This document shows positions 13,518 to 40,938 of a stretch of 64,000 bases of DNA, piece after piece. The stretch is from Candidatus Nomurabacteria bacterium (GTDB lineage Bacteria > Patescibacteriota > Minisyncoccia > Phycocordibacterales > UBA9973), in the NCBI GenBank assembly GCA_016699085.1, contig CP064958.1:131785-195784 (forward strand), read 5' to 3'. The first letter of the stretch is position 1, and every line of letters begins with the position of its first letter. The translations under genes were made by a program, and so were the position numbers. Under the pieces are notes generated by a model. That model was not told the origin of the DNA. It saw only the letters and a list, made by a program, of their open reading frames with translations, and made no database searches.

Positions 13518-14795
13518 ATGAGAAAAATAATACTTTTTTTGGGAGATACAATCATGTTTGTTTTGGCTGGTTTCGCCATGCTCCTTTTGCGTTTTGGTAT
13601 CCATGTCAGCAGTCCTATTATCGAAGCCCACATCCAGGCTTTCATAGCTCTCTATGTGCTATGGCAGATTATCCTCTATATCTGCAACCTGTATGATTTT
13701 GAATTCATCAAGCCATCATTTGAAAGCATTCGAAATCTACTGCTCGCTATAAGCATTAGTCTCGTGAGCGGGTTTTTACTTTTTTACTTTGTACATTTTC
13801 CTGTCACTCCAAAAACTAATCTACTGCTCTTGGCACTCTCGTATGGTGTACTACTATTTGCATGGCGAAATATTTACTTTTCTATTTTTGCTCATAATTT
13901 CAAGAAACATATCGCTTTTATTGGTAACGCACCACTTGCCAATACTCTCATAGAAGAAATCGGACGTCACCCACATTTGGGATATGCCTACGAAGGAACC
14001 TACGAGTCTGTAGCCGAACTTATTGCAACAGGTCGTACGATAGATATTGTTGTCTATGGAAAACAAATCGAAAGCTCGGAGCTTGCGCATTTGATTGCCA
14101 ATCAATCACACGTACTTGATCTGAGGCAAGCATTTCAAAACATATTGCATCGCGTTCCTGTTGTACTTATGAACGATACGCTTGCGCTTCGTATTGTTGA
14201 AAATCGCGACACTGATCTTTATGAGTTTCTAGTACGCGGAATAGAAATAATTCTGGCACTTTGTATTCTCGTACTTACATCTCCATTATTACTCCTTGCT
14301 GCGATTGCAATACGAATAGAAGACTCGCGCAGTATTTTCTATAAACAAGAGCGCGTCGGACGACACGGCAAGCGATTTAGTATCATCAAACTGCAATCAA
14401 TGTATACCAATGCTGAAAAAAACGGTGCACAATGGGCAACACACAATGATAGTCGCATCACGCCAGTTGGAAAAATTTTACGCATTACCCATATCGATGA
14501 GATCCCACAAATGTGGAATGTGCTCAAGGGGGACATAGCCTTAGTCGGTCCGCGACCGGAGAGACCAGAGTTTGTGGAGAAATTAGACAAAGAGATACCC
14601 TACTACTTCTTGCGCCATACAATCAAACCAGGCTTCACAGGCTGGGCGCAAATCAAATTTCGTTACGCAAGAAGTGTCATGGATTCACAAGAAAAATTTG
14701 AGTACGATTTATACTACGTCAAAAATAGAAATTTCTTCCTCGATATTGGCATTATCCTAAAAACAATCCAGATCGTTTTTACCCACGGGGTTTAG
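13518..14795 (+). CDS. Polyprenyl-phosphate hexose-1-phosphate transferase (WbaP/WcaJ-like initiating 'bacterial sugar transferase')
   Basis: Multi-TM N-terminus, then a C-terminal catalytic block: RVGRHGKRFSIIKLQSM...NVLKGDIALVGPRPERPEFV...KPGFTGWAQI. An alternative start at 13554 has the SD GGGAGA. Confidence 0.85.
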   Translation: MRKIILFLGDTIMFVLAGFAMLLLRFGIHVSSPIIEAHIQAFIALYVLWQIILYICNLYDFEFIKPSFESIRNLLLAISISLVSGFLLFYFVHFPVTPKTNLLLLALSYGVLLFAWRNIYFSIFAHNFKKHIAFIGNAPLANTLIEEIGRHPHLGYAYEGTYESVAELIATGRTIDIVVYGKQIESSELAHLIANQSHVLDLRQAFQNILHRVPVVLMNDTLALRIVENRDTDLYEFLVRGIEIILALCILVLTSPLLLLAAIAIRIEDSRSIFYKQERVGRHGKRFSIIKLQSMYTNAEKNGAQWATHNDSRITPVGKILRITHIDEIPQMWNVLKGDIALVGPRPERPEFVEKLDKEIPYYFLRHTIKPGFTGWAQIKFRYARSVMDSQEKFEYDLYYVKNRNFFLDIGIILKTIQIVFTHGV

Positions 14796-16732
14796 AGATA
14801 TTTTTCTAATCGCTCAAGTGCTATCCAAAATCCTTCACCGCCGTTTTCATGACCTTGCCATATTTCTGGAATAAAAGAGCATGTAATACCTAGAGAATCT
14901 AAATTTTTTCGTAATTCATTAAAGTCAATTTCACCTTCTCCTACTTGTATCCCTTCTCCATTTACATCTTTTGCATCCACGACATGCAAATGAGCAGTAT
15001 ATTTTAAAATTTTCTTTGTAAATTCAGAGAAATCCCATCCGTAGGTATTGCAAGCCAATTTGGAATGTGAAGTATCAAAACAGATTCTGTACTTATACTT
15101 TTCACAAAAAGCAGCAATCTCATCTGGATCAAGGAAAAGATTGTGGTAGAGCTGTCCACCTAAAAGCCATGGGTACGGCGGCATTGTTTGAATGATAATT
15201 TCTACACCATCTTGATTAATGTTTGCGAGTCCATCTGCAATTCTTTCATACAATACTTGCCGTTCTTCTTTCGATAGTGGCTTGTCTTTTGTAAAACCAC
15301 CGGCATTGACCACAATAAGTGGCTTGTTTGCTTTACTAAAATGTTTTTTTAGCTCATTCGTAATAGAAACAACTCTCTGCAGTTCAGCAATTGAGCGTCG
15401 CCAATATATTTCATCTGAAGAAGCGAGGTTAAGTAAATGATCATCAGCAAATGTCTCAGGACTATGGACGATGAGATCCATTGCAAGTGGTTTAGGAAAA
15501 TGACTACTAATATCTTCAGTAAGATCGTTATAGCTTAAGTGAAATTCAAGCAAATCAGGATTAGTAAATTTATGCAATTCTTTATAATCATAGTAACGAA
15601 CAGGAATGCCCCAAGGTCTATTGAATGTGTAGCTCCGTGGTTCAAAATTTTTATCAAGTAAATCATTAAGATAAAAAAAATCTCCTTGACGCAAGCTGCG
15701 ACGAGCTTTACGATTGATAAGTTTCTCTTTCTGGTCTGGTTGAAGCCCTCGGCCAGGACTTTTTACTTCGATCATCTCCGGTGTAATCATGTCACCTTTT
15801 TTAATATCCCTTGTTGCAACCAAGCTTTTTGCCAAATTCGCTCTGTTCATTTTTTCCCCTTGGGTTAACTCTCTTTTTTTTGCTGTACCGAGTGATGCTT
15901 CCACTTGTCGAATTCCCTCAATCATTACCTTGAATTCATCTGGGGTGAGGCTAGCTTTATGGTCCGAACCTTCCATCGTACGATCAAAAGTTATATGCTT
16001 TTCAATTATTTTTGCGCCCCTTGCAACTGCAGCAATAGCAATGTTGATCCCCCGTTCGTGCCCGCTATACCCATACAATGCTGTTCCAAGTCTGCTCATA
16101 TATTGCAAATTAATATCTTGGAAAGGTGCAGGGTAGGTTGAATTACAGTGTAGCAGTATGTATTTTGCATTAAGCCTTTTTAAAAGATTATTTACTGCAA
16201 TGATCTCAGATTCTTGAGACATGCCAGTTGAACAAATGATTGGTTTTTTTGTTTTTACGATTTCTCTAATCAAATCATGATTTGTTAGATCGGCAGATGC
16301 TACTTTATACGTATGCATACCGTATGCTTCTAATTTCTTTAGGCTTTCCAAATCCCAGGGTGTGCAAAGTGGAAACATCCCAACCTCGCGTGCATAATCA
16401 AAAAGTTTAAACATTTGCTCATCTGCTAATTGGAATTTTGAAAGCAGATCAAGTGTGTACTGCGATGTTAAATTTTCTTTAATATCATTTGTTGTTCCCT
16501 TGTTAGCATAGAGTGACTCTATATCTCTCATCTGGAATTTCACACAATCAACCCCGGCTTCTTTGGCGGCATCAATCAATGCTTTGGCACGGTCGAAACT
16601 ACCATTATGATTGAGTCCAATTTCTGCAATGACAAAAACGGGCTCGCCGAGCCCAACATATCGGTCACCAAATTTAATCTTCTTGGGTGAACCAAATACA
16701 AAACGTTTCAACCTATCTTTAAGTGAAGCCAC
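14792..16732 (-). CDS. Nonulosonic-acid (sialic-acid-like) synthase, NeuB family with SAF domain, fused to a C-terminal xylose-isomerase-like TIM-barrel (sugar-phosphate isomerase/epimerase) domain
   Basis: N-terminal ~350 aa: PVFVIAEIGLNHNGSFDRAKALIDAAKEAGVDCVKFQ...ICSTGMS...YILLHCNSTYPAP... plus a SAF-like TRDIKKGDMITPEMIEVKSPGRGL. C-terminal ~270 aa: CFDTSHSKLACNTYGWDFSEF...HLHVVD...EGEIDF... resembles the AP-endonuclease-2 / sugar-phosphate isomerase fold. Confidence 0.75.
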   Translation of the reverse strand: MASLKDRLKRFVFGSPKKIKFGDRYVGLGEPVFVIAEIGLNHNGSFDRAKALIDAAKEAGVDCVKFQMRDIESLYANKGTTNDIKENLTSQYTLDLLSKFQLADEQMFKLFDYAREVGMFPLCTPWDLESLKKLEAYGMHTYKVASADLTNHDLIREIVKTKKPIICSTGMSQESEIIAVNNLLKRLNAKYILLHCNSTYPAPFQDINLQYMSRLGTALYGYSGHERGINIAIAAVARGAKIIEKHITFDRTMEGSDHKASLTPDEFKVMIEGIRQVEASLGTAKKRELTQGEKMNRANLAKSLVATRDIKKGDMITPEMIEVKSPGRGLQPDQKEKLINRKARRSLRQGDFFYLNDLLDKNFEPRSYTFNRPWGIPVRYYDYKELHKFTNPDLLEFHLSYNDLTEDISSHFPKPLAMDLIVHSPETFADDHLLNLASSDEIYWRRSIAELQRVVSITNELKKHFSKANKPLIVVNAGGFTKDKPLSKEERQVLYERIADGLANINQDGVEIIIQTMPPYPWLLGGQLYHNLFLDPDEIAAFCEKYKYRICFDTSHSKLACNTYGWDFSEFTKKILKYTAHLHVVDAKDVNGEGIQVGEGEIDFNELRKNLDSLGITCSFIPEIWQGHENGGEGFWIALERLEKYL

Positions 16733-16771: not shown

Positions 16772-17521
16772 CTACGCAGCAAATTCTTCAGGCTTTGACA
16801 AAATAATCTGTTCAGCAAGTTTGATTTCATACACCGAATCAATATCTACGTCTCGCCACTTCTCAAAATAAAGCGGTATAATCTTGGTACCACTCATAGA
16901 ATTTTTTTGAGTTATAACTCTAGGCCGAATAACATCAACATAACCTGAATGGCGTAAAACTTTTGGAAGGAGCTGGCGAGGCATATTAAATGCTTCAGGA
17001 TATTGCGCAAATACTTCTGGAAAAACATTCGTAAGTAGTGGCTCCAAATATCCACCACTTTCTGTATACATTTTAAATGGCGTATGTAGCGGCTCACAAA
17101 CAGATCGCACTGATTCTGCATCTGGATTATCTAAAAGTAATTGGACCCCTGTATCAATATCCTTGCCTTTTTTAAGTGGCGTTGTAGGTCGTAAATGTAC
17201 CACAACATCTGGCATATACCCTTCACTGTCATATAAATGTTTGAGTGCATGAATGAAAACAGGTAAATCTGGAGTGAGATCTTCTGCTAATTCTTTAGGG
17301 CGTAGGAATGGAACTTCAACTCCATATGAACGCGCAATTTCAGCCATTTCCTCATCATCAGTTGAAATAATAATTCTCGTTAATAATTTACTTTCTTTGG
17401 CTGCCTTGATGGTGTAGTACATCAAGGGCTTGCCAGCACAAAGTGCAATACTTTTCTTTGGAATTGATTTCGATCCACCTCGAGCTAAAATTATTCCTAA
17501 TATATGTTTGGGATTATCCAT
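16772..17521 (-). CDS. CMP-nonulosonic-acid synthetase (acylneuraminate cytidylyltransferase, NeuA family)
   Basis: ILGIILARGGSKSIPKKSIALCAGKPLMYYTIKAAKESKLLTRIIISTDDEEMAEIARSYGVEVPFLRP matches the CTP-transferase-3 family N-terminus. Confidence 0.8.
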   Translation of the reverse strand: MDNPKHILGIILARGGSKSIPKKSIALCAGKPLMYYTIKAAKESKLLTRIIISTDDEEMAEIARSYGVEVPFLRPKELAEDLTPDLPVFIHALKHLYDSEGYMPDVVVHLRPTTPLKKGKDIDTGVQLLLDNPDAESVRSVCEPLHTPFKMYTESGGYLEPLLTNVFPEVFAQYPEAFNMPRQLLPKVLRHSGYVDVIRPRVITQKNSMSGTKIIPLYFEKWRDVDIDSVYEIKLAEQIILSKPEEFAA

Positions 17522-18899
17522 GCTGAGTCAATGATACAAGTAAATTTCCTAACCGCAAACTAGCTTTGCCGTCAAATGGGTCTACCATAAGTTGAAGTCC
17601 TGCATTGCGACCTTCTTGGTCAAGTAAAGGATTAGTTACATACCGATTGATAGCAAAGGCAAGCTCTGGATCATTTTTTACTACACATACTGCTCCAGTT
17701 TCGACTAAGGCTTCAAAGTGTGTGTAGGTATCGTAGAAGCGTTTTGCTGATTGCCAATATGTAATGTTAGATAAATTAAGGTCATAATCGATACAGATAA
17801 CTGGCTTACCAAGCGCAATCGCATCAATGGCAAATGTCGACGCACCAGTAATAATTATATCTGAGTGAAAAATAGTATTTATAAGGTGTGCTGTCTCATG
17901 TATGTCTATTTCTTTGCCCGCTTGATCTTTGCCGACATGAAGCGCAACAGTATCTGGAGTCACATGAGGAAGTGATTTAATTGCTTCAAGCGGACTTAAA
18001 AAACGTGGATGTGCTCGAAAAAAGAACTGAATATTATCTGGAATTTTTTTCTCTACAACTAATTTATTAAGTACAGGAGCAACTGCACCTTCGTGTGGAA
18101 ATAGAAAATCCCCCATCGCACCATAGGTTATAATTTTTTTGTTTTGATCGATACCTAATTTCTGAAGAAATATTTCTCTCGGAACAATTAGTGATTGATA
18201 GTTTTTATAAATATCATAGTGAGGCAAACCCACAATGTGGATATGCTCTTTTGGTAATCCAAATTTCTGAATAGCAAATGCCATGTCAGATAGGTACTGA
18301 TTCTGGACAATAAGTTCATCGGGCACCATTCGTATCAATCCATGGCTCGTAAAGTTATCCCAGCTTCTCGGCATGCCGATGAGTGGAATTTTTCTTTTTT
18401 TAGCAACAATGGCGATCCAGACATCAAACTCGCGATTGGTCAGTGATGTTGCAAATACATGGGTGGGTTTGTAGGTATCAAAAAGTACATCGAGCTCTAT
18501 AGGAGATGGCTGTAAGAGATACAGATATCGGATGAATTTTTTCCAAAACGAAATATTACCAAATATCTTTGTGTAAATTATTTTAAGCGTTGTAGAAATA
18601 AAACTCGCATCACTTCTCGTATAAGCAAACATTTTCTCCCATGTGTTTGTATGAGTATCAATACCATTGAGTGCCATCCAGTCAATCAGTCGACGAAAAT
18701 ATCCAAGTGGCCTGTAATTCACTGCTACAACTATAGTATCTGGACTTTGAAACAAAGCTTGATACGTTTCAAGTTTTTCTGGTTTTACAAGAAGAATAAT
18801 TTTGCCTTTGTAATTATCTCGAAATGTTTTCCAAAAATCAGTAAAGAAAATATTTCGTGCAATAAAGGTCTCAGGAAGAGTGATAAATATTGTCTGCAT
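17514..18899 (-). CDS. Putative CDP-glycerol glycerophosphotransferase-like (TagB/TagF-family) or sialyltransferase-like transferase
   Basis: 461 aa. The C-terminal block HSDIIITGASTFAIDAIALGKPVICIDYD resembles the glycerophosphotransferase-family C-terminus. Sits between the CMP-sugar synthetase and the glycosyltransferases. Confidence 0.4.
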   Translation of the reverse strand: MQTIFITLPETFIARNIFFTDFWKTFRDNYKGKIILLVKPEKLETYQALFQSPDTIVVAVNYRPLGYFRRLIDWMALNGIDTHTNTWEKMFAYTRSDASFISTTLKIIYTKIFGNISFWKKFIRYLYLLQPSPIELDVLFDTYKPTHVFATSLTNREFDVWIAIVAKKRKIPLIGMPRSWDNFTSHGLIRMVPDELIVQNQYLSDMAFAIQKFGLPKEHIHIVGLPHYDIYKNYQSLIVPREIFLQKLGIDQNKKIITYGAMGDFLFPHEGAVAPVLNKLVVEKKIPDNIQFFFRAHPRFLSPLEAIKSLPHVTPDTVALHVGKDQAGKEIDIHETAHLINTIFHSDIIITGASTFAIDAIALGKPVICIDYDLNLSNITYWQSAKRFYDTYTHFEALVETGAVCVVKNDPELAFAINRYVTNPLLDQEGRNAGLQLMVDPFDGKASLRLGNLLVSLTQHG

Positions 18900-18979: not shown

Positions 18980-19963
18980 ATGAAAAAAGTTCTCTTGGTT
19001 ACAAAAGATCTCATGCCGTTCAAATTATTATTTGAGACCTATTGTTGGATTAAAGATAATACGGATTTTATTGTTGCGATTGTCGCAGAAGGCAAATCTG
19101 CTGAAGAATGGAGAGAGAAAAATGTTCCCCTACTGACTGAGGGAGATATCTCTACGGAACAGGTTTATGCAATTATGGCAGCCATGAAACCCGACTGTGT
19201 CGTGACAGGACTCTCGAGCCCAAATAATCTCGAGGATAGTATTGGTTTGATTGCTAATACTACTCACACAAAACTTGCTGTTATTTCTGACACTTGGGGA
19301 GCAATCTCAAGGGTCGACAAAGCTCAACCTGATTTCATATTTGCTATGGATGCATTTGATGCAGGGTTGTGTGCAGCAAAATTTCCTGATGCTCATATAT
19401 CCGTAATAGGCGACATCACGAGAAAAATAACACCGCCCGAGGACGTATCGAGAGTTTGCGACAAAATACAAAGAACAGGAAAAAATTTGATCCTAATCAC
19501 AGGACAAAATCCGGGGTATACTGACGATATAATCCGAATCATCCGTGACTCTGTTGCAATGGAACCACAAAATTGTGCAGTTGTCGTTCGTCTCCATCCA
19601 AAATTCAAAGGACTTCCTGAAGAAAAACCTCTGCGAGATTTGATTGAGACATTTCCTCCCGGAACAGTAGTAGAAATTGACGGCAGCACAGATGAAATTG
19701 CAAGCTGCGCAAGAATCGTAGTTAGTGTTTTTAAAACTGTGCTACGTGTTGGCTCAATAGCACATCGGACAGCAATATCTGTTGTAACACCAAAAACTGT
19801 TGCTGGCATGAAAAAATCAACTGGACTTTCTCAGTACCCCCTCGCAATGATGGGTAATTGTCTCGAAATTTCCAAACCGACATTACTGTCAAAAATTCCA
19901 AGGCATGATGCATATGTACCTAAAGAATTTAACCCAGCAGTCGTGCTGGAAATATTCAAATAA
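18980..19963 (+). CDS. Hypothetical protein, possibly a GT-B/epimerase-like fold, within the glycan locus
   Basis: 327 aa with alternating beta-alpha character. No confident motif. Only by location is it a candidate for a missing nonulosonic-acid pathway step. Confidence 0.25.
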   Translation: MKKVLLVTKDLMPFKLLFETYCWIKDNTDFIVAIVAEGKSAEEWREKNVPLLTEGDISTEQVYAIMAAMKPDCVVTGLSSPNNLEDSIGLIANTTHTKLAVISDTWGAISRVDKAQPDFIFAMDAFDAGLCAAKFPDAHISVIGDITRKITPPEDVSRVCDKIQRTGKNLILITGQNPGYTDDIIRIIRDSVAMEPQNCAVVVRLHPKFKGLPEEKPLRDLIETFPPGTVVEIDGSTDEIASCARIVVSVFKTVLRVGSIAHRTAISVVTPKTVAGMKKSTGLSQYPLAMMGNCLEISKPTLLSKIPRHDAYVPKEFNPAVVLEIFK

Positions 19964-19982: not shown

Positions 19983-20012
19983 AAAAACCAACGTCTAACG
20001 TTGGTTTTTTAT
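19983..20012. terminator. Bidirectional terminator between convergent genes
   Basis: aaaaaccaacgtctaacgttggtttttt. Confidence 0.55.
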
Positions 20013-20761
20013 TTTCGTTTAAGAACAACAAAAAAGGTTTCAGTTAGCCAGTTTTTGTAGCGTTCTTCAGAAAAAAGAACTTTTAATATTGCGTAGCGTA
20101 CCTGGTGGTGCCATTCTACTCGTGGCACATGGTAACCAACAGCGGCAACCTCAAAGCCATGCTTGGCTGCATTATAGAAAAGGAAATTCTCAGCATCTGA
20201 TGTATTGAAGTACCACTTATGCCGATCTTGTGATTTCTCGGGGGGGATACCGTAGCTCGCAGGACCAGCTGTACCTTTGAGCATTGGTTTTAGGAGTTTT
20301 CGCCAGCAATTCGGAAGCGATATGATAAGGTATTTTTCTGTTACCCGAGCAAGGTCAGCAAATGAACTATGAATATCGTTAACATGCTCAAGTGTATCGA
20401 GACAGAGCACAGTCTGGAATGATTGATTAGGAAACGGTATTGTTGTCTTTTCCCAATCCCAAACTGTATTGTTGAAATTATTCTTATCGATAAGTGTACA
20501 TGGCAAGCCCAAAATTTTCTCTGCGCGATCATCACGACTACCCACATCAAGCACATTTTCATGCACGTATTCCATGAATTCATCGTAAATCAAATTGTAT
20601 CGCTGTAATGATCTCGGTACATAGCGAGTTTTAATTTCTTTGAAAGGAAAATTTTCTTTCGTTTTTACAACTTCGTTAAAAGCATCTTTGTCATACTCAC
20701 CTTTGAAGTACAGCCCCCCGCCGGCATACCGATTACTAATTGTTTTTGTAAGGTTATCCAT
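20009..20761 (-). CDS. Class I SAM-dependent methyltransferase-like protein
   Basis: VLDVGSRDD...LDTLEHV resemble motif I and post-I of Methyltransf_11-type enzymes. Confidence 0.45.
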   Translation of the reverse strand: MDNLTKTISNRYAGGGLYFKGEYDKDAFNEVVKTKENFPFKEIKTRYVPRSLQRYNLIYDEFMEYVHENVLDVGSRDDRAEKILGLPCTLIDKNNFNNTVWDWEKTTIPFPNQSFQTVLCLDTLEHVNDIHSSFADLARVTEKYLIISLPNCWRKLLKPMLKGTAGPASYGIPPEKSQDRHKWYFNTSDAENFLFYNAAKHGFEVAAVGYHVPRVEWHHQVRYAILKVLFSEERYKNWLTETFFVVLKRK

Positions 20762-20768
20762 ATAAGTA

Positions 20769-21626
20769 TTAAATCTTTAAAGATTCTAATTTTTCATACA
20801 CTATCTCTGTCTCCTTCTCCAAGGGATACATAGTAGCCAATGCTTCAAATTCTTTGCTTGATCGATTAAACTCAGGTTTGATCAAATTTTTCAGTGTTGT
20901 AATATCACCTGCCCCTATAAAAGCAACGAGCTTTGTAAGTACTTTATCTTGGGCACTAGGATTCACAAGATCATCATAGGCAATCAACATACTTTCATGA
21001 GTTGCTAGATGATAGAGCAAATTTTTATTGCTTGCAGTCCAATGTTCTAAGAGCGAAGTAAATGTTGCAGCGCCTGCACCCCAGCTTCGCATGATTGACT
21101 GCGCACCAACGAGCGGATGACGATAGACGCCAATCACTTTAGTGTTTTTCGGCATATAATGTTTCCAAAAATAAAAAAATATTGGCAATGACTTAAACCC
21201 GAATCGCTTCTGACTGTGACCAAGATGAAGCAGAAGCTTAATCATCGATCTCCGGGTAAATGCCCGACTCACTTGATGGAAAAAAGTATCAGCCCGAAGT
21301 ATGCCTGCGTCATTGTATAAATCATTGCGGTTATACTGTCCAGCTTCACGCATCAGTTTACGGTTTAGAGCAAACATCTGATTATGCTCAAAAAAGCCGT
21401 TGTGATTGCGAGCATCGCCCGCTTTGAGTTCCTGATCTCGTCCAAAATACACACCACATTGAGAGACGAGATTAGATACGAGACTCGTACCATTACGCTG
21501 GAAGCCAATCACCACAAAGGCATCACCTGAAATTTTTTGAAATTGCTCAAGCTTACCTTCAGACGCAAAAAGCGTGCGCCAGACTGGCCGGAGCATCTTT
21601 TGGTAGATAGGTTTCATATACATCAC
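20769..21626 (-). CDS. Putative sulfotransferase-family protein
   Basis: An N-terminal P-loop-like 5'-PSB-type motif (FVVIGFQRNGTSLV) and an Arg/Ser-containing 3'-PB-like region. Assignment is tentative. Confidence 0.35.
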   Translation of the reverse strand: MMYMKPIYQKMLRPVWRTLFASEGKLEQFQKISGDAFVVIGFQRNGTSLVSNLVSQCGVYFGRDQELKAGDARNHNGFFEHNQMFALNRKLMREAGQYNRNDLYNDAGILRADTFFHQVSRAFTRRSMIKLLLHLGHSQKRFGFKSLPIFFYFWKHYMPKNTKVIGVYRHPLVGAQSIMRSWGAGAATFTSLLEHWTASNKNLLYHLATHESMLIAYDDLVNPSAQDKVLTKLVAFIGAGDITTLKNLIKPEFNRSSKEFEALATMYPLEKETEIVYEKLESLKI

Positions 21627-25129: not shown

Positions 25130-25130
25130 A

Positions 25131-32351: not shown

Positions 32352-32367
32352 CGCAAATACATACTTG

Positions 32368-33528: not shown

Positions 33529-34630
33529 ATGATTTTAAAATAGATACATAGAGTGCAAATACTTCTCTACTCATGATTTCTCCAGTATATTGCATACCAC
33601 GCTCTTTAGCCTTTATTCCTTTTTGATGCCGAAAATCATCATTTGAAATAAGCTCAATAAGCGCAAGTGCTATATCTTCAGATGTCACCTGCGCAGGCAA
33701 AAGCGCACCTACAGTTGCATCAATTGCCTCACTCATACCACCGACATTATTTGCAATAACAGGTATACTAAGTTGCAAAGCTTCTAAAATTACCATTGGG
33801 AAACCCTCCCAATCAGATACAAGGACTAAAATATCACCTTCTGATAACTCAGCCAATGCTTTAGCTCTATCTAGAGTCTCAGTAATATATATACTTTTTT
33901 CTACATGCAGTGCTAGTATTTGTGTATTGAGCTTTGATTTTTTTGGTCCATTACCGAGCAATCGCACTTCTACCTTTGCCTGCAAAGCTTGAGGCAAACG
34001 GGCGAAAGCAGCAATCAGGAGATCCTGACGTTTTGGTTCTGCAAACCTTCCTAAAAACACAATTCGCAATTTCTTGTTTTCATGCTTTCGGGTAATATTG
34101 CTTGGGATGGTTACGCCATTATGAATAACATTAATCTTTTCCTTTTTGGCAATGGCGTACGACAATGCAATCTGCTGATCAAACACTGATACGCATATGA
34201 TTTTTTTGCAAAAGTATGCCGCAATCTTTTCTGCAACAATGGCAATAATTTTTTTAGGCAATGATACACCATTGATGAATCCCCAACCATGGGCTGTATA
34301 TACCACAGGATATCTATTCAATAGCCCTATGCGCCCAATAAATCCTGAAAATGAGCTATGTAGTGAGACGATATCGGGCTTAAATTCTAGTACAGCGTTT
34401 CGATATACAAAAAGTGCTCGGAGAATAAGTATCGGATTAAGTGTCTTTTGAATAAATCGATTTGGGATAAATGAAAATCCAAATGCTTTTGTTTCATCTG
34501 CAAGCCATCCACTAGTAGATGCCATTACAATAACTTCATCCCCATTTTTTTTATGTGCTGAAAGAAGTTCCCAAATGACGCTCTGGGCACCTCCGCATTC
34601 CGATTTTGTAATAAAATAAAATATTCGCAT
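33512..34630 (-). CDS. Glycosyltransferase family 1
   Basis: EGFPMVILEALQLSIPVIANNVGGMSEAID. Confidence 0.85.
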   Translation of the reverse strand: MRIFYFITKSECGGAQSVIWELLSAHKKNGDEVIVMASTSGWLADETKAFGFSFIPNRFIQKTLNPILILRALFVYRNAVLEFKPDIVSLHSSFSGFIGRIGLLNRYPVVYTAHGWGFINGVSLPKKIIAIVAEKIAAYFCKKIICVSVFDQQIALSYAIAKKEKINVIHNGVTIPSNITRKHENKKLRIVFLGRFAEPKRQDLLIAAFARLPQALQAKVEVRLLGNGPKKSKLNTQILALHVEKSIYITETLDRAKALAELSEGDILVLVSDWEGFPMVILEALQLSIPVIANNVGGMSEAIDATVGALLPAQVTSEDIALALIELISNDDFRHQKGIKAKERGMQYTGEIMSREVFALYVSILKSYARKV

Positions 34631-34647: not shown

Positions 34648-36753
34648 CTAAAACGGAATAGTGTACACGAAACCAGGAATTTCATTTTGCGCCTTCACTA
34701 ACGCCGTGTTGAAAAGATCGTCTTGGTTGCTGATTAAATATAAATTAAGCAATAACGAGCGAGTTTCCGACACAGCAGGCTGGAGAATAATAGCTTTGTT
34801 GACCAGATCAATTGCTTCATTAAATTTACTTGCTCCAACATATGTTTCAGCAAGCGTTAGATAGCCAAATACATTTGATGGTGAAAGTGCGAGTAATTTT
34901 TTTCCATACACCTCTGCAAGTGCATTTGCTTCAGCATCTTTGGCCTTGCTAATTTCATAAATCAAATTATTAATACGTGCAATTACAAATGGATTTTGAT
35001 AGTTATCTGGATCTTTTGCTTCTATGGATTGCAGAACTTTGACTTGAGCCTTGAGGTCAGTGATAGCGCGTTTTTCTCCATCTTCTGCAGACATAATAAT
35101 TGAGAAGTTATTGGCATATGACTGGTATAGTGCATCAGCAAATTGAGCCGTTGTTCGCGAAACTCCGACTGGTGACATGTGAGTAACATGCTCTAACCTG
35201 TTTACCCTCGTCGTAGGATCCGAGGTAACTAATTTTGACAATGCATGGAGTTTTGCAATCGGTAAAATTACTATCCATATAAGCACGCCAACATATAGCA
35301 ATTTTATTCCTACACTAAGTGCGATTTGTTTCGGTGGCAATATGACACCTTTCTCTTCTAAAGTCTGTTCAGACGTATCTTGTGTATTTTTATATATTCC
35401 TACGTATATACATGCGAGCACAACAATCCATATAACTGCAGTGGCCGGTGTATCAAAAAGAAAAAGATTTTGAAAAAAGTAGGCAATAAGTGCAGCAATA
35501 CCAAAGAGTACAAATAATGGTGTCTGTCTCATTTTCCAAGAATATCGCACCAGTACAACAAGCGGAAAGAAGAAAAGACAAAGATATAATACCAGTGCAG
35601 GCATACCGGCAACTGCTCCCCATTCCAACACTTGATTGTGTGGTTTATCTACCCATGGCTCAATAAGTGGGCTTGAGAAAAGCGCTGTATCAAAATATTT
35701 TTCAAATGCAATAAAATAGTTTTCTGGACCAAAACCGAACAAGGGTCTATCATGCATTGCTTGCAATGAAACTTTTGCATACGCCAAACGATTACCACCT
35801 GTCGTCTCAATAAAATATTTATTTAATGCTGTATTTGTTTGAAATGTTTTTACAATGCCAATTGTAGAGACAACAATCGCCATAAGCATAACCACCACAA
35901 TGCTATACCGCACCCATTTCTTTCCTTTTACAAATGTCACCCACATTCCTGCTGCAATCAGTCCGACGAGCATACCGAGCACTGCAGCACGAGCCTCACC
36001 CAAAAAAAGAGCTGGTTGATGGAGTATCTCTCCGATTGAGACTCTACCTAACCAAATGTTAAAGTTAAATAATGTTGGACTTACGGCAATCACAATACTT
36101 GTGATTGCATAGAAAATTCGCTTTGCTTTTGATGAAGTTGTAAACAGTAGATATATGTTAGCCAAAAGTGCAATGATTAAATATCCACCTAAAAATGATG
36201 AGTTGCCGAGGGTTGCACCTGAGGTGTCGGCAGCAATTTCGAGTGATTTAATACCCAAACCAGATGTACCTACATAGGTTTGTAGTGCCATTAAAAGTCC
36301 CGTACTACCTACAAGGACTAGCAATCTACGGAAATTTTCGATTGATGGAAAAACTGATCGAATAAGGATGAAGAAAAGATACAAGTGGATATAGAAAATA
36401 ACACCAAGTCCACGCATATAGTATGACCAAAATGAGGTAACAGGACTGGTACCGAAAATTGCCGAAAGAATTATCCACCCCAAAAAACCAATAAAGATCC
36501 AATCAATAATTCCAATTTTGTAGCGATAGCGTTCATCCTTGATAATAACACGTAGGTATATCCACAACAGAAATGCAGTAAGTGTGAGCCCTTCAAAGAT
36601 ATATACTTTAATCGCACCAATGCCGACATATGGACCTGGAGTCGTTAAGACAAAAAGTGGTACAAGGAAAATGGTTATTTCAATAATTCGCTTTAAAACT
36701 TTTCCTAGTAGATTAATTTTTTTTGCAGAGATTTTCATGGGTCGTAATGACAA
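34648..36753 (-). CDS. Wzy_C-domain (O-antigen ligase / O-oligosaccharyltransferase-like) polytopic membrane protein with C-terminal TPR repeats
   Basis: Multi-TM region with a ...VDKPHNQVLEWGAVAGMPALVLY... block as in the Wzy_C/WaaL/PglL family. The C-terminal ~200 aa are soluble and helical, TPR-like. Confidence 0.6.
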   Translation of the reverse strand: MSLRPMKISAKKINLLGKVLKRIIEITIFLVPLFVLTTPGPYVGIGAIKVYIFEGLTLTAFLLWIYLRVIIKDERYRYKIGIIDWIFIGFLGWIILSAIFGTSPVTSFWSYYMRGLGVIFYIHLYLFFILIRSVFPSIENFRRLLVLVGSTGLLMALQTYVGTSGLGIKSLEIAADTSGATLGNSSFLGGYLIIALLANIYLLFTTSSKAKRIFYAITSIVIAVSPTLFNFNIWLGRVSIGEILHQPALFLGEARAAVLGMLVGLIAAGMWVTFVKGKKWVRYSIVVVMLMAIVVSTIGIVKTFQTNTALNKYFIETTGGNRLAYAKVSLQAMHDRPLFGFGPENYFIAFEKYFDTALFSSPLIEPWVDKPHNQVLEWGAVAGMPALVLYLCLFFFPLVVLVRYSWKMRQTPLFVLFGIAALIAYFFQNLFLFDTPATAVIWIVVLACIYVGIYKNTQDTSEQTLEEKGVILPPKQIALSVGIKLLYVGVLIWIVILPIAKLHALSKLVTSDPTTRVNRLEHVTHMSPVGVSRTTAQFADALYQSYANNFSIIMSAEDGEKRAITDLKAQVKVLQSIEAKDPDNYQNPFVIARINNLIYEISKAKDAEANALAEVYGKKLLALSPSNVFGYLTLAETYVGASKFNEAIDLVNKAIILQPAVSETRSLLLNLYLISNQDDLFNTALVKAQNEIPGFVYTIPF

Positions 36754-36759
36754 ATAACT

Positions 36760-38835
36760 TTACTTACTGACACTATTGTCATTAAATAGTAGCCCCGTAT
36801 CAGCCAATGCTTGAGCTTGGGCTTCTTTTAATAACGTTTCATTCTTTGTAAGTACTGCTAAATTAATAATAATCTGGTGTGATTCTGGAATTAATCTATC
36901 AATTGCCAATCCCTTTTGAAAAGATACCAATGCATTTTCATAATCACCTTCGTAGATATATCTTTGCCCTAGCAACCAATAACCTTGCGGCATTGTTGGA
37001 GATATGGCAATAGTTTTATCAGCAGCATTTTGCATTTCAGTAAGCGCATCCGAATCTAATTTATTTAAAATTGCAATTTTTAAACTTGCAATACGCCCAA
37101 GCGCAAGTGTCGCCTGCGTGTTTATCGGATGTATAAGGAAACTATCATTAAGCACTTTTGCCATTGCATCAAGATCAGTAATAATAATATCTTTCTGCGG
37201 CTCGGCTAATACTACAATCTCATCTATGTGCGCCTGATATAGCTGGCTATACGTATCTACTCGTTCTGCTATAAATATGCCACTACCAAATGGAGATATG
37301 GATTCAACTCGAGCATAGGACAGCTGTCTATCTTCGATTGGCATTTGTGATTCAACAAATGCATGCTTGAGCTTGCTCATTTCAGGAATCATAATAACGA
37401 GCGTGACTACAACAAGCACAACGCCGCATACAGCACGACTTATAAAATTAATATTTGTAACAGGCTTTGTTTCGATTCCTAGATTTACACTTCTTAAACT
37501 ACCTTCAGAAGAAATGACCCAGGCCATAACTGCAAATAGTAACAAGTAGCTCGTTGGTGTATCAAATACAAATACATTACTTATAAGTGCAGTAAAAAGA
37601 AAACCATTGATGCTTGCAAAAAACCAACGATGCTTAGTCAAGCGGTAAACTCTAAATGATCCCCACGCAATACAGCCAAGCATAAACATATAAGCAATAC
37701 CCCCAATTATACCTGTCGTCGAGAGCCATTCCATATAAGCGTTGTGGGGTTTATCACTCCACTGCTCTTTATTATATGCTGCAAGCATCATGTCTGGATT
37801 GAAATATTTCTCATAGGTATATCGATATGTTTCAGGCCCGCTACCTAGGACAGGATGGTCCTGGATACCTTGAAGCGCAATATCCCAATAGATAAAACGA
37901 CTACCAGTAGCTTCTTGGATGAATGCTTGATGTATATATGTCTGTGGCAGCACAAGGAGTATAAGAGACACCAGAAATCCAACTATGGTACAAAAAAGAA
38001 TAATACGTCCTGACCATTTTTTTATCGTACGCTGTGATGTTGACCAGATAATGCCCCACACTATGAGCAAGCCTCCAATAAGCGCAATAACATCGGCACG
38101 AGCATTTCCAAGCACGTCAACTACTCGGGTAATGGAGCCATGAAATATCGCAAAATTAACAAGCGTTGGATTAACAAGTATGGTAGCCCCAACAATACCG
38201 AACACGATTCGACTCGTCCGGGTCGTTGCCGTGGCAAAAAGATATATAGCAATGAATAATGCTTCAGCAAGATACGTACCAGTAAATGAAGAGTTACCAA
38301 TAAGTCCGCCGCCTGAACTATTTTCCAAAACTTGACTTGTAATGATTCCAAATCCGCTCGGACCAAGAATAACCGAGAGACTCACAATGACTGCAGCCCC
38401 AGTAATTGGATAAAGCAAAAAACGTCTGATCTTTTTTGGATCTTTGAGTGCTACCCCAATTGCAATAGCCCCAAGTGCTACAAGCAGTATAAAAAAAGTA
38501 CCAGTTCCCCGTTCCGGATGTCCAAGCCATGACAGTACCCTATCTACACTACCAAGCATTGCCACTACCAAAACAATAAGGAATGCAACAATACCCCACG
38601 TCATTCTCGTATACAATAGATTCTTGAGCGTTGCCCATGGCACAGCAAACAATACAAGCGCTATCGTACAAGCACTACCGATGGCTATAATAAATGTCTT
38701 CGAATTTATATAATTGAACCATATCCCAGAAAATACAACAGTAGATCCAAAAAATAATGTACAGGCAATAATATACGGCAAAACAGGCAAAAGCATACTT
38801 GTGCATTTTTGCTGAAAAATTTCTATAGTTTTCAT
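36760..38835 (-). CDS. Second Wzy_C-domain (O-antigen ligase / O-oligosaccharyltransferase-like) membrane protein with C-terminal TPR repeats; paralog of the upstream gene
   Basis: ...SDKPHNAYMEWLSTTGIIGGIAYMFMLG... block. Same architecture as 34648-36753. Confidence 0.6.
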   Translation of the reverse strand: MKTIEIFQQKCTSMLLPVLPYIIACTLFFGSTVVFSGIWFNYINSKTFIIAIGSACTIALVLFAVPWATLKNLLYTRMTWGIVAFLIVLVVAMLGSVDRVLSWLGHPERGTGTFFILLVALGAIAIGVALKDPKKIRRFLLYPITGAAVIVSLSVILGPSGFGIITSQVLENSSGGGLIGNSSFTGTYLAEALFIAIYLFATATTRTSRIVFGIVGATILVNPTLVNFAIFHGSITRVVDVLGNARADVIALIGGLLIVWGIIWSTSQRTIKKWSGRIILFCTIVGFLVSLILLVLPQTYIHQAFIQEATGSRFIYWDIALQGIQDHPVLGSGPETYRYTYEKYFNPDMMLAAYNKEQWSDKPHNAYMEWLSTTGIIGGIAYMFMLGCIAWGSFRVYRLTKHRWFFASINGFLFTALISNVFVFDTPTSYLLLFAVMAWVISSEGSLRSVNLGIETKPVTNINFISRAVCGVVLVVVTLVIMIPEMSKLKHAFVESQMPIEDRQLSYARVESISPFGSGIFIAERVDTYSQLYQAHIDEIVVLAEPQKDIIITDLDAMAKVLNDSFLIHPINTQATLALGRIASLKIAILNKLDSDALTEMQNAADKTIAISPTMPQGYWLLGQRYIYEGDYENALVSFQKGLAIDRLIPESHQIIINLAVLTKNETLLKEAQAQALADTGLLFNDNSVSK

Positions 38836-38875
38836 ATTGCCTTATAGTAACATATAATTTTGCCTTCCTAAAAAC

Positions 38876-38906
38876 ACAAAAACCACCCCCGAGGGGGTGG
38901 TTTTTG
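38876..38906. terminator. Strong rho-independent terminator after the surface-protein gene
   Basis: aaaaaccacccccgagggggtggtttttg. Confidence 0.65.
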
Positions 38907-38943
38907 TTATCTTTAGCAATTGCTTGCTTTGGATGCCTCTCGC

Positions 38944-40938
38944 TTAGTTAGCGTTTTGGTAGTTCGTAGTGAACGCCGCATTCGTTGGACCAAGGTTGAA
39001 GTTGTATAGACCAGTGAATGTACCAGCCGCAGCTATATCAGTTGAATCCCAGTTGATGCTTGAAAGGTAAGCACGGTAGAGACCAGCTGTATTAGTAACA
39101 CCATCAGTAACACTTACAGTAAGAGTGAAGTTTTCACTTGTACCGCTGTTAATAACGAAGTTACCATTTGATGAGAGTGAAGGACTGTATGGTCCTGTAT
39201 CCACTACAACACCAGAAACTTGAGCGTTTGATACTGTAACTCCAGACTTATCAACACCAAAGATTACTTTCTCGCCTGATGTACCAGCAAGTGTTGGCAT
39301 GTAGATTGTACTGCCGAATGCTGTTACCTTGAAAGCGATAGTAAATGTTTGGATGTCATCATTTGCAGATGTACCTGGTGTAAGACTTGCTGTTGCAGAG
39401 ATTGGATCAACCATGATGCCCTTATCGTAGAATGCTACAGATTCACCTGTTGCAGAACCGATAAGTTTAGTAGCACCAATAGTATTACCAGTTGCATCAG
39501 TAATGTCATATCCAGCAACCCCACCAGCAATCGTTGCACTCATGGTTGAACCTGCAACAAATGCAGTTGTACCAGGAAGTGGAAGGATGTCAGCAGAGAC
39601 GATGAAGTCAGCTGATGAACCATTCGTGATTGTCTGATTAAGATTCTTGAATGTGTACGCTGTTGATGTACCAGTTGCTTGAACAGTTGTTGAGTCAAGA
39701 ACTACTCCACTTGCGTTTTGAAGGTAGAGAGTACTTGCCATCAAATTCAATGCTACACCTGATGTGATCGTAACTGGGATCTTATCAATTTGTAGATTTG
39801 AACCAACTGCCTTGAAGTTAGCCTTCAAGAGCTGTACTTTGTTTGTGTTTGAAGTTGCATCAACGTCTTTAACGTGTGCCTTCATGTCATCTGTTGCGCG
39901 TGAAATAGCAACTTCAACACTGTTTGCTGATGCTGCACTTGCAAAGCTAAATGAACATGCACTTGTTGAAGAACAGTTCGTAGGATTGTAGGTTAGTGAA
40001 GCGCCTGTTCCATCCGTAAAGCGGATGTTAGAAACGATCACTCTCCATGTGTTTCCACCAGAAACTGTGTTTGCACTATCGATTACTGGAAGTGCTGAAA
40101 CGCCGACGTAGAAGTTTGACTTCTGGCCTGCAAGAATCTTAGCACCACTAAGAGTTATTGTCTTAGAGTAAACGTAGTTTGTGTACGCAGAGTTAGTGTC
40201 TTGACTGAATTCAGACGCAAGCGCTGAACCAACCTTTGTGCCTTCTTCCCAGAATGAAACATTTGAGAAGTATTTATCCATCTTTGTGTCTGTACCAGTA
40301 CCACTAGTCATCACGAATTGAAGACTAAGTGAGGTAAGAGTCACATCAGAGCCACCAGAAGCAGCCTTAAGCTGGATACCAGCAACTTGATGATCAGCAT
40401 CACCTACGCCGACAAGTTCACTAGCGTAACCGCCAATCAACGTATCGCTTTCGATGCTACCAACACCAGTTGGATTGCTTACAACACTACCGCTACATGA
40501 TGCACCGGTTGTAACGCTGTAAAGCTGTCCAGGCATTGTACAGCCAGGAACACTTGATACACCGCCTGTACATGGAGCTCCAGTAGTTGAACTATAGAGA
40601 GCACCAGCCATACAGCCAGGAACACTTGATGGTGTACCACCCAAAGTATTGATTGATGAAGCAGTCATAGGACCAACAACACCATCAGCACTTAGAGCGT
40701 GAGCACCTTGATACCAAACAACAGCTGCTTTGGTCATAGGACCAAAAGCACCATCAACAGTAAGTGCTGGAGCATAACCAGCAACATTGAGTGCTGCTTG
40801 AAGATCCATCACTTCTTGTCCACTTGAACCTACAACGAGGTTCGGAGGAACACTAACTTCTGCGCGAGCTACGTTTACAACTATGAAAGCTGCAAGAACG
40901 AAAGCTGTTGCAAAAGCGAATTTTGTAAATTTTTGCAT
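38944..40938 (-). CDS. Secreted Ser/Thr/Gly-rich surface (S-layer-like) protein with an N-terminal signal peptide, a peptidoglycan-binding domain and two Cys-loop repeats
   Basis: Signal peptide MQKFTKFAFATAFVLAAFIVVNVARA. PG_binding_1-like SSGQEVMDLQAALNVAGYAPALTVDGAFGPMTKAAVVWYQGAHALSADGVVGPMT. Tandem VPGCxxxGxLYSxTTGAxCxG repeats. The remainder is ~45% S/T/G/A. Confidence 0.6.
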   Translation of the reverse strand: MQKFTKFAFATAFVLAAFIVVNVARAEVSVPPNLVVGSSGQEVMDLQAALNVAGYAPALTVDGAFGPMTKAAVVWYQGAHALSADGVVGPMTASSINTLGGTPSSVPGCMAGALYSSTTGAPCTGGVSSVPGCTMPGQLYSVTTGASCSGSVVSNPTGVGSIESDTLIGGYASELVGVGDADHQVAGIQLKAASGGSDVTLTSLSLQFVMTSGTGTDTKMDKYFSNVSFWEEGTKVGSALASEFSQDTNSAYTNYVYSKTITLSGAKILAGQKSNFYVGVSALPVIDSANTVSGGNTWRVIVSNIRFTDGTGASLTYNPTNCSSTSACSFSFASAASANSVEVAISRATDDMKAHVKDVDATSNTNKVQLLKANFKAVGSNLQIDKIPVTITSGVALNLMASTLYLQNASGVVLDSTTVQATGTSTAYTFKNLNQTITNGSSADFIVSADILPLPGTTAFVAGSTMSATIAGGVAGYDITDATGNTIGATKLIGSATGESVAFYDKGIMVDPISATASLTPGTSANDDIQTFTIAFKVTAFGSTIYMPTLAGTSGEKVIFGVDKSGVTVSNAQVSGVVVDTGPYSPSLSSNGNFVINSGTSENFTLTVSVTDGVTNTAGLYRAYLSSINWDSTDIAAAGTFTGLYNFNLGPTNAAFTTNYQNAN
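40490..40640. repeat. Tandem ~72-bp direct repeat inside the surface-protein gene (encodes the duplicated Cys-loop motif)
   Basis: cagccaggaacacttga occurs at 40541 and 40613 with similar flanks. Confidence 0.5.

Follow-up and report, generated by a model that had tools for sequence, protein, structure and literature searches.

A strain-variable, probable surface-glycosylation island, with a conserved Wzy_C-TPR protein and a candidate protein acceptor, at a fixed site of a Candidatus Nomurabacteria chromosome

In the galF-gnd region of Escherichia coli and the dexB-aliA region of pneumococci, hypervariable genes for glycosyltransferases, Wzx and Wzy are located between conserved flanks at a fixed site. 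In some strains only of Clostridioides difficile, those with S-layer cassette type 11 (SLCT-11), a 24-kb glycosylation insert lies beside slpA (PMC6254364). In Tannerella forsythia, the product of an O-glycosylation cluster decorates abundant surface proteins (PMC6120980, PMC5420450), and the genes of PglL-type oligosaccharyltransferases (OTases) usually adjoin their target genes (PMC3643930). The present analysis concerns a stretch of 64,000 nucleotides (the window) from a metagenome-assembled genome of Candidatus Nomurabacteria, a lineage of the Candidate Phyla Radiation (CPR/Patescibacteria), and in particular the 24 open reading frames (ORFs) at 13518-40938, numbered g1 to g24 and listed with the upstream gene g25 in Table 1. 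The locus is a real 27-kb island for building a complex, decorated sugar chain. The best explanation is that it serves cell-surface glycosylation, varies between strains and occupies one fixed "surface" position on the chromosome, and its glycan is probably attached to the main wall-anchored surface protein of the cell.

Likenesses and differences can be seen with each of the known systems. As in SLCT-11, where the cluster measures ~24 kb, a recombining, strain-variable cassette is placed beside the gene of a major wall-surface protein and encodes a priming undecaprenyl-phosphate sugar transferase, several glycosyltransferases (GTs) and, for the final step on the outer side of the membrane, a ligase, here a candidate one (PMC6254364). 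O-linkage of the glycan to the surface protein would be a further likeness. The two systems differ in export, which uses an ABC transporter in C. difficile and Wzx here, and in the acceptor, a proven S-layer protein with CWB2 anchoring in C. difficile versus the candidate g24 with PG_binding_1. The duplicated candidate ligase with C-terminal TPR, the NeuB-type acid and the many tailoring enzymes also set this locus apart. Shared with the Tannerella cluster are Wzx, several GTs and methyltransferases; a GT-B enzyme of the TagB superfamily adds a CMP-activated derivative of pseudaminic or legionaminic acid (Pse/Leg) in Tannerella (PMC6120980, PMC5420450), and g4 may have a comparable role here. 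However, Tannerella is a diderm member of Bacteroidota with the sequon D-(S/T)-(A/I/L/V/M/T) and a known, full Pse/Leg precursor pathway, whereas here precursor genes are not in the window, a TIM barrel forms part of the synthase, and the family score of g4 is far below the cutoff. An earlier note on this DNA, made from the sequence without database searches, had compared the locus with S-layer glycosylation (slg) clusters of Gram-positives and with Tannerella. The second comparison gains support from g4, whose best family match, although far below the cutoff, is the Tannerella Pse/Leg transferase family, which has experimental support (PMC5420450). The first stands in part: a WsaP-type initiating transferase (g1) and Wzy_C proteins (g22, g23) do occur in one cluster, but S-layer anchoring, an S-layer fold and ABC export do not, the locus holding no ABC2_membrane/ABC_tran pair and a Polysacc_synt flippase instead.

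With the PglL, PilO, TfpO, WsfB and WaaL enzymes, g22 and g23 have in common the Wzy_C domain and a polytopic fold, which in the g23 model matches WaaL (PDB 7tpg), and conserved Arg/Arg/His residues in outer loops may be another common point. A relaxed requirement for glycan structure would also be shared, as would the tendency of the gene to stand beside its target (PMC3643930). Adjacency to a secreted candidate target with a low-complexity Ser/Thr/Ala/Pro region is seen in the pair formed by g24 and the Wzy_C(-TPR) gene. Different from the characterised members are an extra transmembrane (TM) helix and a TPR domain of ~200 residues, and no sequence-level match of g22 or g23 to solved members was obtained. 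Like O-antigen and capsule loci, the island is variable, occupies a fixed site and has a GC content slightly below that of its flanks; unlike them, the window contains no Wzz, CpsBCD, LCP or lipid A-core genes, and the flank includes a putative acceptor and a ligase-like enzyme. Eukaryotic TMTC1-4 and TfpW of Pseudomonas aeruginosa (bioRxiv 10.1101/2020.04.19.049825) also combine a polytopic transferase of lipid-linked sugars with non-cytoplasmic TPR repeats for protein O-glycosylation, but they have a GT-C/PMT-like fold instead of Wzy_C and offer an analogy only. Protein O-glycosylation by the island would match three precedents: SLCT-11, Tannerella and the adjacency of PglL-type enzymes to their targets.

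Related loci were gathered through homologues of g23, homologues of g24 and a metagenome scan; the contig scan yielded six loci, one of them a spurious Bacteroidota match. The backbone common to these loci runs from RecA, a small Glucodextran_B-like protein and FtsK through a g25-like gene and a leader of 490-730 nt, a length range that covers all orthologous loci, to the g24 orthologue, and the gene of ribosomal protein L10 lies at the far end. In 9 of ~13 independent related loci (the window, L003, L004, L005, L007, L015, L016, L019 and L020), the g24 orthologue is followed by a Wzy_C(-TPR) gene orthologous to g23, with one ORF between them in L019, and then by the cassette, Wzx and the g1 orthologue. 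The position of Wzy_C proteins beside a wall-anchored Ser/Thr-rich protein, already pointed out in the earlier note, is therefore a recurrent one. Cassette size ranges from ~7 kb in L016, with an epimerase, Wzx, GT4, GT2, GT4 and an initiating transferase, to ~25 kb in the window. The conserved components are g1 (40-54% identity, at the same island border in L003, L004, L007, L016 and L019), g23 (24-40%) and g24 (26-52%). Between the compared cassettes, no similarity was detectable for the GTs, Wzx or the second Wzy_C protein, except for a partial overlap with L019, where g17, g20 and g21 have homologues that are 37-50% identical; a BLAST comparison of g9, the window's Wzx, with the Wzx proteins of L003 and L004 gave no match. 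Because the backbone is the same and the content between g24 and L10 varies, the site behaves like a serotype locus, in which only the genes of the surface protein, of one ligase-like enzyme and of the priming transferase stay constant.

The second Wzy_C gene is among the variable parts. In L003, L004 and L020 its product is short (420-448 aa) and devoid of TPR, and g22 has no match to the 420-aa second Wzy_C protein of L003/L004; in L007, L016 and L019, the single Wzy_C-family gene is the conserved one with TPR. Since g23 is kept with every kind of cassette and the second Wzy_C varies, gene content argues that g23 is a glycan-promiscuous ligase or OTase and not a repeat-specific polymerase, and g22 may polymerise repeat units or be an additional ligase. 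The same comparison bears on another explanation, namely that the island makes a wall polysaccharide, capsule or exopolysaccharide by the Wzx/Wzy-dependent route, with one Wzy_C protein polymerising the chain, the polymer placed on peptidoglycan or released, and g24 a mere neighbour. The locus does hold the full set of initiating transferase, GTs, Wzx and Wzy_C of that pathway, and hypervariable cassettes within conserved flanks typify capsule and O-antigen serotype loci. Moreover, the short, TPR-less second Wzy_C of L003, L004 and L020 resembles a classical polymerase, and the interval in L017, L026 and L030 contains further surface proteins only, so that it may be a hotspot of surface genes and not the seat of an enzyme-substrate pair. 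However, of the pathway parts, the window offers the initiating transferase, Wzx and, as a possible polymerase, the ligase-like g22, and no Wzz/GNVR protein, LCP ligase or CpsBCD-type regulator was found in its 64 kb. The lone TPR-bearing Wzy_C of L007, L016 and L019 is retained across unrelated cassettes, unlike repeat-specific polymerases, and both g22 and g23 retain the ligase-type His of the DKPHN motif. We consider a polysaccharide product less likely than protein O-glycosylation, but a serious rival to it.

Membership of g22 and g23 in the Wzy_C superfamily is clear (Pfam cutoff 31.7 bits; scores in Table 1), and the two are full-length paralogues with 28% identity. PDB sequence searches with them returned TPR proteins only and no solved Wzy_C member. 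In the AlphaFold2 (AF2) model of g23 (mean confidence, pLDDT, 79; pTM 0.79), WaaL 7tpg is the sole significant PDB fold neighbour (E 1.7e-5, TM-score 0.55 on the target), and TPR proteins match the C-terminus. In the structural check that the earlier note had proposed, a comparison of the Wzy_C proteins with PglL and WsfB, the match of the g23 model was thus to WaaL, with no PglL-type structure among the matches. R246, R313 and H364, the last in the DKPHN motif, are invariant in a nine-sequence alignment at 18-40% identity to g23. The protein has 13 predicted TM helices and an outer loop at 296-375; from helix count and order and the positive-inside rule, this loop and the TPR domain (500-684) would be located on the same outer face.

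The WaaL resemblance gives some weight to a further possibility, in which a glycolipid of the membrane receives the flipped glycan from g23, making g23 a WaaL analogue with an acceptor other than lipid A, the product being a lipoglycan comparable to lipoteichoic acid or lipopolysaccharide in a monoderm cell. WaaL is the sole solved structural relative, the conserved Arg/Arg/His set may correspond to the catalytic Arg/Arg/His of WaaL and His of PglL, and the large g23 family (1718 representatives at E<1e-10) often lacks a g24-like neighbour. Against this, no genes for the biosynthesis of a lipid anchor were found in the window, no CPR bacterium is known to make lipid A, and both the extracytoplasmic TPR domain and the recurrent Ser/Thr-rich secreted neighbours would be left unexplained. 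A lipid acceptor is accordingly judged improbable.

A word-indexed search with g23 gave 8 homologous proteins, and an exhaustive search showed the true extent of the Wzy_C-TPR family: besides the number cited above, there are 152 representatives of 50%-identity clusters at E<1e-30. The best 150 matches are mostly 600-700 aa long and are aligned over nearly their full length. Four Wzy_C-TPR paralogues stand in a row in L010 (Magasanikbacteria, 3631-11944), three co-directional and one on the opposite strand. In L008 (Uhrbacteria, 9-4473), a 694-aa protein with 25% Ser/Thr is encoded directly upstream of the Wzy_C-TPR gene, which is followed by three further Ser/Thr-rich ORFs.

The candidate acceptor, g24, contains 24% Ser+Thr, compared with a background of 11.8% in its neighbours. 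Its AF2 model (pLDDT 82.6) consists of a peptidoglycan-binding domain, a disordered linker at 99-160 and three Ig-like beta-sandwich domains. The linker is made of S/T/G/A/P/C, with 31% S/T, 37% G/A/P, zero charged residues and two Cys-bracketed motifs. These motifs, of ~20 residues (PGCxxGxxYSxTTGxxC), are found once or twice beside PG_binding_1 in 58 of the 72 family members; in g24 they occupy residues 107-148 (~40495-40620), where AF2 confidence is low, and they also occur in the unrelated second Ser/Thr-rich wall protein of L017 (12322-14334). Neither an SLH domain nor CWB2 is present in g24, the anchor being PG_binding_1.

Several features suggest that g24 is transcribed as a single gene and expressed at a very high level, which would fit a major envelope protein: strong codon bias, low synonymous divergence, a strong terminator and a conserved promoter. 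Its effective number of codons (39.3) is the lowest of the 48 genes in the window (others 43.8-57.7), and its dS against the relative L006 is 0.149, compared with 0.33-0.68 for other genes of the locus. The leader of g24 (97-100% identical to L006) is the most conserved stretch of the 20-kb comparison between the window and L006 (L006 7300-7930), the cassette showing 84-91%, housekeeping genes 84-94% and recA ~87-92%. Within the leader, the g24 promoter is composed of the TTATCCACA box, which is a perfect DnaA-box consensus, a TTGC-type -35 and an extended TATAAT -10. Of 15 orthologous leaders, 13 have retained this combination at a distance of 345-657 nt before the start codon (equivalent box positions in L004, L015-L021, L023, L024, L026 and L030), even among orthologues with only ~30% protein identity. 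The predicted 5' untranslated region (UTR) measures ~400 nt and contains the palindromic element CCCTGTCGACAAGGCAG, and a terminator-like hairpin lies between promoter and palindrome. This element, the second conserved one of the leader besides the box, has the form CC(C/G)TGTCGACAAGGCAG with TGTCGACA as its palindrome; it is also seen in the leaders of L004, L007, L016 and L019, and its distance from the ATG is 185-373 nt.

Three other interpretations of the leader were rejected: a known RNA family (the leader has no Rfam match), a replication origin (single perfect DnaA box, no cluster, no switch in GC skew) and a conserved 40-aa upstream ORF (one stretch, DTLIKCLN, recurs in L004 alone, over the conserved hairpin). 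The conserved box suggests control of g24 by DnaA or by the neighbouring g25. The C-terminal conserved motif of g25, EKTLQRELxxLVxxGxLxKxGxKRWSxY, resembles a DeoR-type winged helix, the Pfam HTH_DeoR match being only at E 0.083, and g25 is a possible regulator of g24.

That g24 is an O-glycosylated protein, perhaps along with further Ser/Thr-rich proteins of the wall, is the reading that best suits the gene evidence, because the g24-g23 pair is conserved, g23 and g1 are independent of the cassette, the TPR domain is predicted to be external, and no LCP ligase, Wzz/tyrosine-kinase or lipid A genes were found in the 64-kb window. A number of observations weigh against it. The Wzy_C superfamily includes polymerases and lipid ligases as well, and neither sequence nor fold separates these activities; the only solved relative of g23 is WaaL, and PglL-type structures are missing among its matches. 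Polysaccharides or partner proteins can likewise be the ligands of TPR domains. The pairing of g24 with Wzy_C is frequent but not obligatory, as it is missing in ~1/4 to 1/3 of loci: 4-5 relatives (L017, L026, L028/L030 and perhaps L023) keep g24 without a nearby Wzy_C or glycan cassette, and more Ser/Thr-rich PG_binding proteins follow g24 there in place of glycan genes. L017 had been entertained as a g24-Wzy_C pair without cassette, which was rejected when its 670-aa neighbour proved to be a second Ser/Thr-rich wall protein. Conversely, another CPR lineage has a Wzy_C-TPR gene and the acid module beside secA with no g24-like neighbour. Fold searches with g24 retrieved no S-layer-specific fold, only generic Ig-like, adhesin or integrin-type neighbours, and an LCP ligase or other ligases could lie outside the 64-kb window. 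Since Wzy_C activities are inseparable in silico, the pairing is not universal and other ligases are possible beyond the window, a probability of about 0.5 is assigned to O-glycosylation of g24.

The acid proposed to enter the glycan would be the product of a module of g2-g6 and g8. The fusion of NeuB, SAF and a TIM barrel in g2 (646 aa) had been missed in the earlier gene list, which named a NeuB-type synthase (g2), a NeuA-type CMP-sugar synthetase (g3) and a sialic-acid-like product. Both family assignments stand (NeuB, CTP_transf_3), but the equivalog cutoffs are not reached: g2 scores 321 bits for NeuB_NnaB (cutoff 399) and 244 bits for PseI (cutoff 340), and the best NCBIfam match of g3, PseF, is also below its cutoff. 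No homologue of NeuC, PseB/C/H/G or LegB/C/H/G was found in the locus or the rest of the 64-kb window, so the enzymes expected to supply a hexose-derived precursor are not there either. With scores below cutoff and no precursor enzymes in the window, the term nonulosonic or sialic-acid-like is to be taken at family level. A CMP-activated NeuB-type acid is well supported by the gene families, and it is plausible that this acid is a sialic-acid-like nonulosonic acid.

The same gaps may be understood differently, with g2-g5 making another 2-keto-3-deoxy acid from an aldose of central metabolism and the TIM barrel supplying or processing the substrate. The sub-cutoff NeuB and PseF scores and the missing precursor enzymes point this way, as do the minimal conserved set in L013 (TagB-like protein, CMP-transferase, fusion and g5 only) and the additional genes around the fusion in L001 and L014. 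On the other side, the N-terminal 350 residues of g2 align end-to-end with PseI and NeuB in the PDB (1e-47 to 1e-52) and include the two His residues that bind the metal, the partner cytidylyltransferase is of NeuA/PseF type, and the best family match of g4, far below the cutoff as it is, is the Tannerella Pse/Leg transferase family. An acid of this other kind is a tentative option, to which we lean less than to a nonulosonic one. The additional genes mentioned are a cupin gene of mannose-phosphate-isomerase type directly after the fusion in L001 and L014 (L014 10062-10772) and, in the L001 module (5724-9968, 11978-12778), genes for a short-chain dehydrogenase, an aldehyde dehydrogenase and a transketolase; they may be hints on the substrate, and none is in the window. 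Candidates for the missing precursor step or steps are obviously the TIM barrel, for which a PDB sequence search gave only MJ1311 (E 0.008), and g5, with insignificant PDB matches only, including UDP-sugar 2-epimerases at E 1.6.

The NeuB-SAF-TIM-barrel fusion belongs to a large family, ~60% identical in CPR-like metagenome-assembled genomes and in cyanobacteria (Crocosphaera, Rippkaea, Geminocystis and Aphanothece; family members P0021, P0064, P0077 and P0079). The cyanobacterial form has ~748 aa, often with a CBS domain, and the Rippkaea gene (L002) stands alone with no glycan genes nearby. In the literature searched, no characterisation of a fusion of NeuB with a xylose-isomerase-like domain was found. 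Homologues of g3 always adjoin the fusion in L001, L012, L013 and L014 (34-73% identity). In L001, L013 and L014, the fusion is accompanied by homologues of g3 (41-73%) and g4 (27-51%), with a Wzy_C-TPR gene nearby, and homologues of g6, g8 and g5 are found in a subset of these modules. In L012, the g3 partner is present as well, but the other genes around the module encode an ABC transporter, a pyruvyl transferase and sulfotransferases. As for g4, an R-x-H-P motif is invariant in five homologues, no D/E-D/E-G motif is present, and a PDB sequence search was without match. Its best family match, BFO_1060, is homologous to transferases of Tannerella, and when these are deleted the terminal Pse/Leg derivative is lost (PMC5420450).

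The observations concern gene families and folds, synteny, purifying selection and signals of expression; from them we infer enzymatic steps, membrane topology and an acceptor as follows. On the cytoplasmic face, g1 would prime the polyprenyl-phosphate carrier, and six GT4-type transferases and one GT2 would extend the oligosaccharide. The self-contained module of g2-g6 and g8 would make a NeuB-type 2-keto-3-deoxy acid, which g3 would activate with CMP and the TagB-like g4 would add to the glycan. Tailoring would be performed by three or four further methyltransferases, the NodB deacetylase and the sulfotransferase-like and PhyH-like proteins. After the lipid-linked glycan has been flipped outward by the Wzx protein g9, the Wzy_C protein g23, with its WaaL/PglL fold and extracytoplasmic TPR, would transfer it en bloc to an acceptor, most probably Ser/Thr residues of g24, e.g. 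in the uncharged S/T/G/A/P linker, and the glycan may also be transferred to other wall proteins rich in Ser/Thr. The cassette-specific g22 would serve as repeat-unit polymerase or second ligase.

Gene families were assigned by Pfam and NCBIfam profile searches with gathering or equivalog cutoffs, and the whole 64-kb window was searched in the same way outside the locus. The profile families bear out the overall view of the earlier note, a lipid-carrier-based, Wzx-dependent surface-glycan locus with an acid module and tailoring enzymes. All 24 ORFs of its mostly minus-strand gene set were found at the coordinates it gave (21 on the minus strand, 3 on the plus strand), and the 4-nt ATGA overlaps it described are real at 7 same-strand junctions. 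The initiating polyprenyl-phosphate sugar transferase (g1, Bac_transf, with TIGR03025 above cutoff), one GT2 (g11), the Wzx flippase (g9), the NodB deacetylase (g13) and the two Wzy_C+TPR membrane proteins (g22 and g23, TPR at the C-terminus) were all recovered, as were the putative sulfotransferase (g7) and the 2-oxoglutarate/Fe dioxygenase (g8), both just over the gathering threshold. The secreted, peptidoglycan-anchored, Ser/Thr-rich protein is g24, with a signal peptide and PG_binding_1, and its own terminator and 570-bp leader were also correctly described. Other counts had to be reduced. Six proteins (g10, g17-g21), and not the seven GT1 proposed, are Glycos_transf_1 members, and g5 has no family match; four of the five S-adenosylmethionine (SAM) methyltransferases are recognisable, g12, g15 and g16 strongly and g6 weakly, but a fifth is not. 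The TagF-like transferase g4 has a weak Glyphos_transf match and the BFO_1060 family as its best NCBIfam match. The proposed P-loop NTPase, g14, shows only a Walker-A motif (GLPGAGKS), without any family match. Relaxed Pfam and NCBIfam scans of g5, g14 and g25 gave no significant match, and a PDB sequence search with g14 gave none at all. The start of g15 is probably the ATG at 28552.

Table 1. Features of the glycosylation island and its upstream flank (positions in the window)
Feature	Position	Strand	Evidence
g1, initiating polyprenyl-phosphate sugar-1-phosphate transferase (PGT)	13518..14795	+	Bac_transf 218 bits; TIGR03025 321.6 bits, cutoff 295.6
g2, NeuB-SAF fused to xylose-isomerase-like TIM barrel, putative ulosonic-acid synthase	14792..16732	-	NeuB 275 bits; SAF; AP_endonuc_2 78 bits
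g3, CMP-sugar synthetase (NeuA/PseF/KdsB family)	16772..17521	-	CTP_transf_3 67.5 bits; PseF 128 bits, cutoff 206
g4, TagB/TagF-like GT-B, putative transferase for CMP-activated acid	17514..18899	-	Glyphos_transf 1e-9; BFO_1060 47 bits, cutoff 200
g5, acid-module-linked protein without family match	18980..19963	+	27%-identical homologue adjoins NeuB fusion in L013
g6, weak SAM methyltransferase, acid module	20009..20761	-	Methyltransf_11 24 bits; 42%-identical homologue in L001 module
g7, sulfotransferase-like	20769..21626	-	Sulfotransfer_3 29 bits, cutoff 27
g8, PhyH-like Fe/2-oxoglutarate dioxygenase, acid module	21683..22558	+	PhyH 22.7 bits, cutoff 22; 38-43% homologues in L001 and L014 modules
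g9, Wzx-type flippase, cassette-specific	22563..23987	-	Polysacc_synt 49.6 bits; ~12 hydrophobic segments
g10 (GT4-type) and g11 (GT2) glycosyltransferases	23984..25931	-	Glycos_transf_1 70 bits; Glycos_transf_2 47 bits
Tailoring block g12-g16	25937..29180	-	Profile matches
g12, g15, g16, methyltransferases (tailoring block)		-	Domains 47-66 bits
g13, NodB deacetylase with N-terminal TM helix (tailoring block)		-	Polysacc_deac_1 92 bits
g14, Walker A plus one TM helix (tailoring block)		-	No family match
g17-g21, five GT4-type glycosyltransferases	29177..34630	-	Glycos_transf_1 31-135 bits
g22, Wzy_C + TPR membrane protein, cassette-specific	34648..36753	-	Wzy_C 62.7 bits
g23, conserved Wzy_C + TPR protein, candidate glycan ligase/OTase	36760..38835	-	Wzy_C 66.2 bits; TPR_2
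g24 intrinsic terminator	38876..38907	-	14-bp stem, 7 GC pairs, then T-run
g24, secreted peptidoglycan-binding Ser/Thr-rich protein, candidate glycan acceptor	38944..40938	-	Signal peptide; PG_binding_1 53 bits
g24 leader	40939..41509	-	97-100% identical to L006
Palindromic element in presumed 5' UTR	~41167-41151	-	CCCTGTCGACAAGGCAG
Terminator-like hairpin	41223-41201		Between promoter and palindromic element
g24 promoter	41373-41346		TTGC-type -35, extended TATAAT -10
DnaA-box consensus	41381-41389	-	TTATCCACA
g25, conserved 245-300-aa protein with C-terminal DeoR-like winged-helix motif	41510..42409	-	Precedes g24 in every related locus

The relative L006, with ~90% nucleotide identity, is collinear with the window over 26773-47721. 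In all 16 genes that can be compared, dN/dS is 0.004-0.32, and these are therefore real, functional genes under purifying selection. The reduced-genome bacterium postulated in the earlier note is Candidatus Nomurabacteria, and g23 is 100% identical to a protein carrying that label. L006 (CAZLWF010000007.1) was deposited as "uncultured Candidatus Saccharibacteria bacterium", and the record with 100%-identical g23 (P0121) is labelled Candidatus Nomurabacteria; probably one of these two taxonomic labels is wrong. Outside the island, the window consists of housekeeping genes. The small Glucodextran_B-like protein (~115-166 aa; 44713-45084, plus strand) is kept between ftsK and recA in all related loci. 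The 23S rRNA gene (2975-7001, minus strand) measures 4027 nt against a 2925-nt model; insertions, among them a group I intron (3406-3628), account for ~1.1 kb. The 5S gene (2717-2822) follows it, and no 16S gene lies upstream of it in the window, an arrangement typical of CPR bacteria.

It can be seen that the locus is kin to known surface-glycosylation systems and that its uncharacterised elements are the Wzy_C-TPR family, the NeuB-TIM fusion and the promoter and leader of g24. In the literature searched on CPR protein glycosylation and CPR nonulosonic acids, nothing relevant was found. A joint interpretation, speculative and on balance doubtful, would be that Wzy_C-TPR proteins are a new CPR-wide class of protein O-OTases whose external TPR selects the acceptor, that Nomurabacteria coat a dominant peptidoglycan-anchored protein with strain-specific island glycans including an uncharacterised NeuB-TIM acid, and that the g24 promoter, with its DnaA-box-like site, ties this coat to the cell cycle.

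CPR/Patescibacteria are ultra-small bacteria with a stripped-down metabolism, and many of them are episymbionts. To our knowledge, almost nothing is known of the chemistry of their cell surface, although this surface is where host attachment and phage recognition take place. The island takes up ~3% of a genome of ~0.8 Mb, and the unrelated or absent sets of sugar genes at the same site in relatives suggest a strong diversifying pressure on the surface coat. Three candidates are now available for testing, namely the TPR-bearing ligase or OTase-like enzyme, its likely protein substrate and the widespread NeuB-TIM fusion, and heterologous expression makes such tests possible without culture of the organism.

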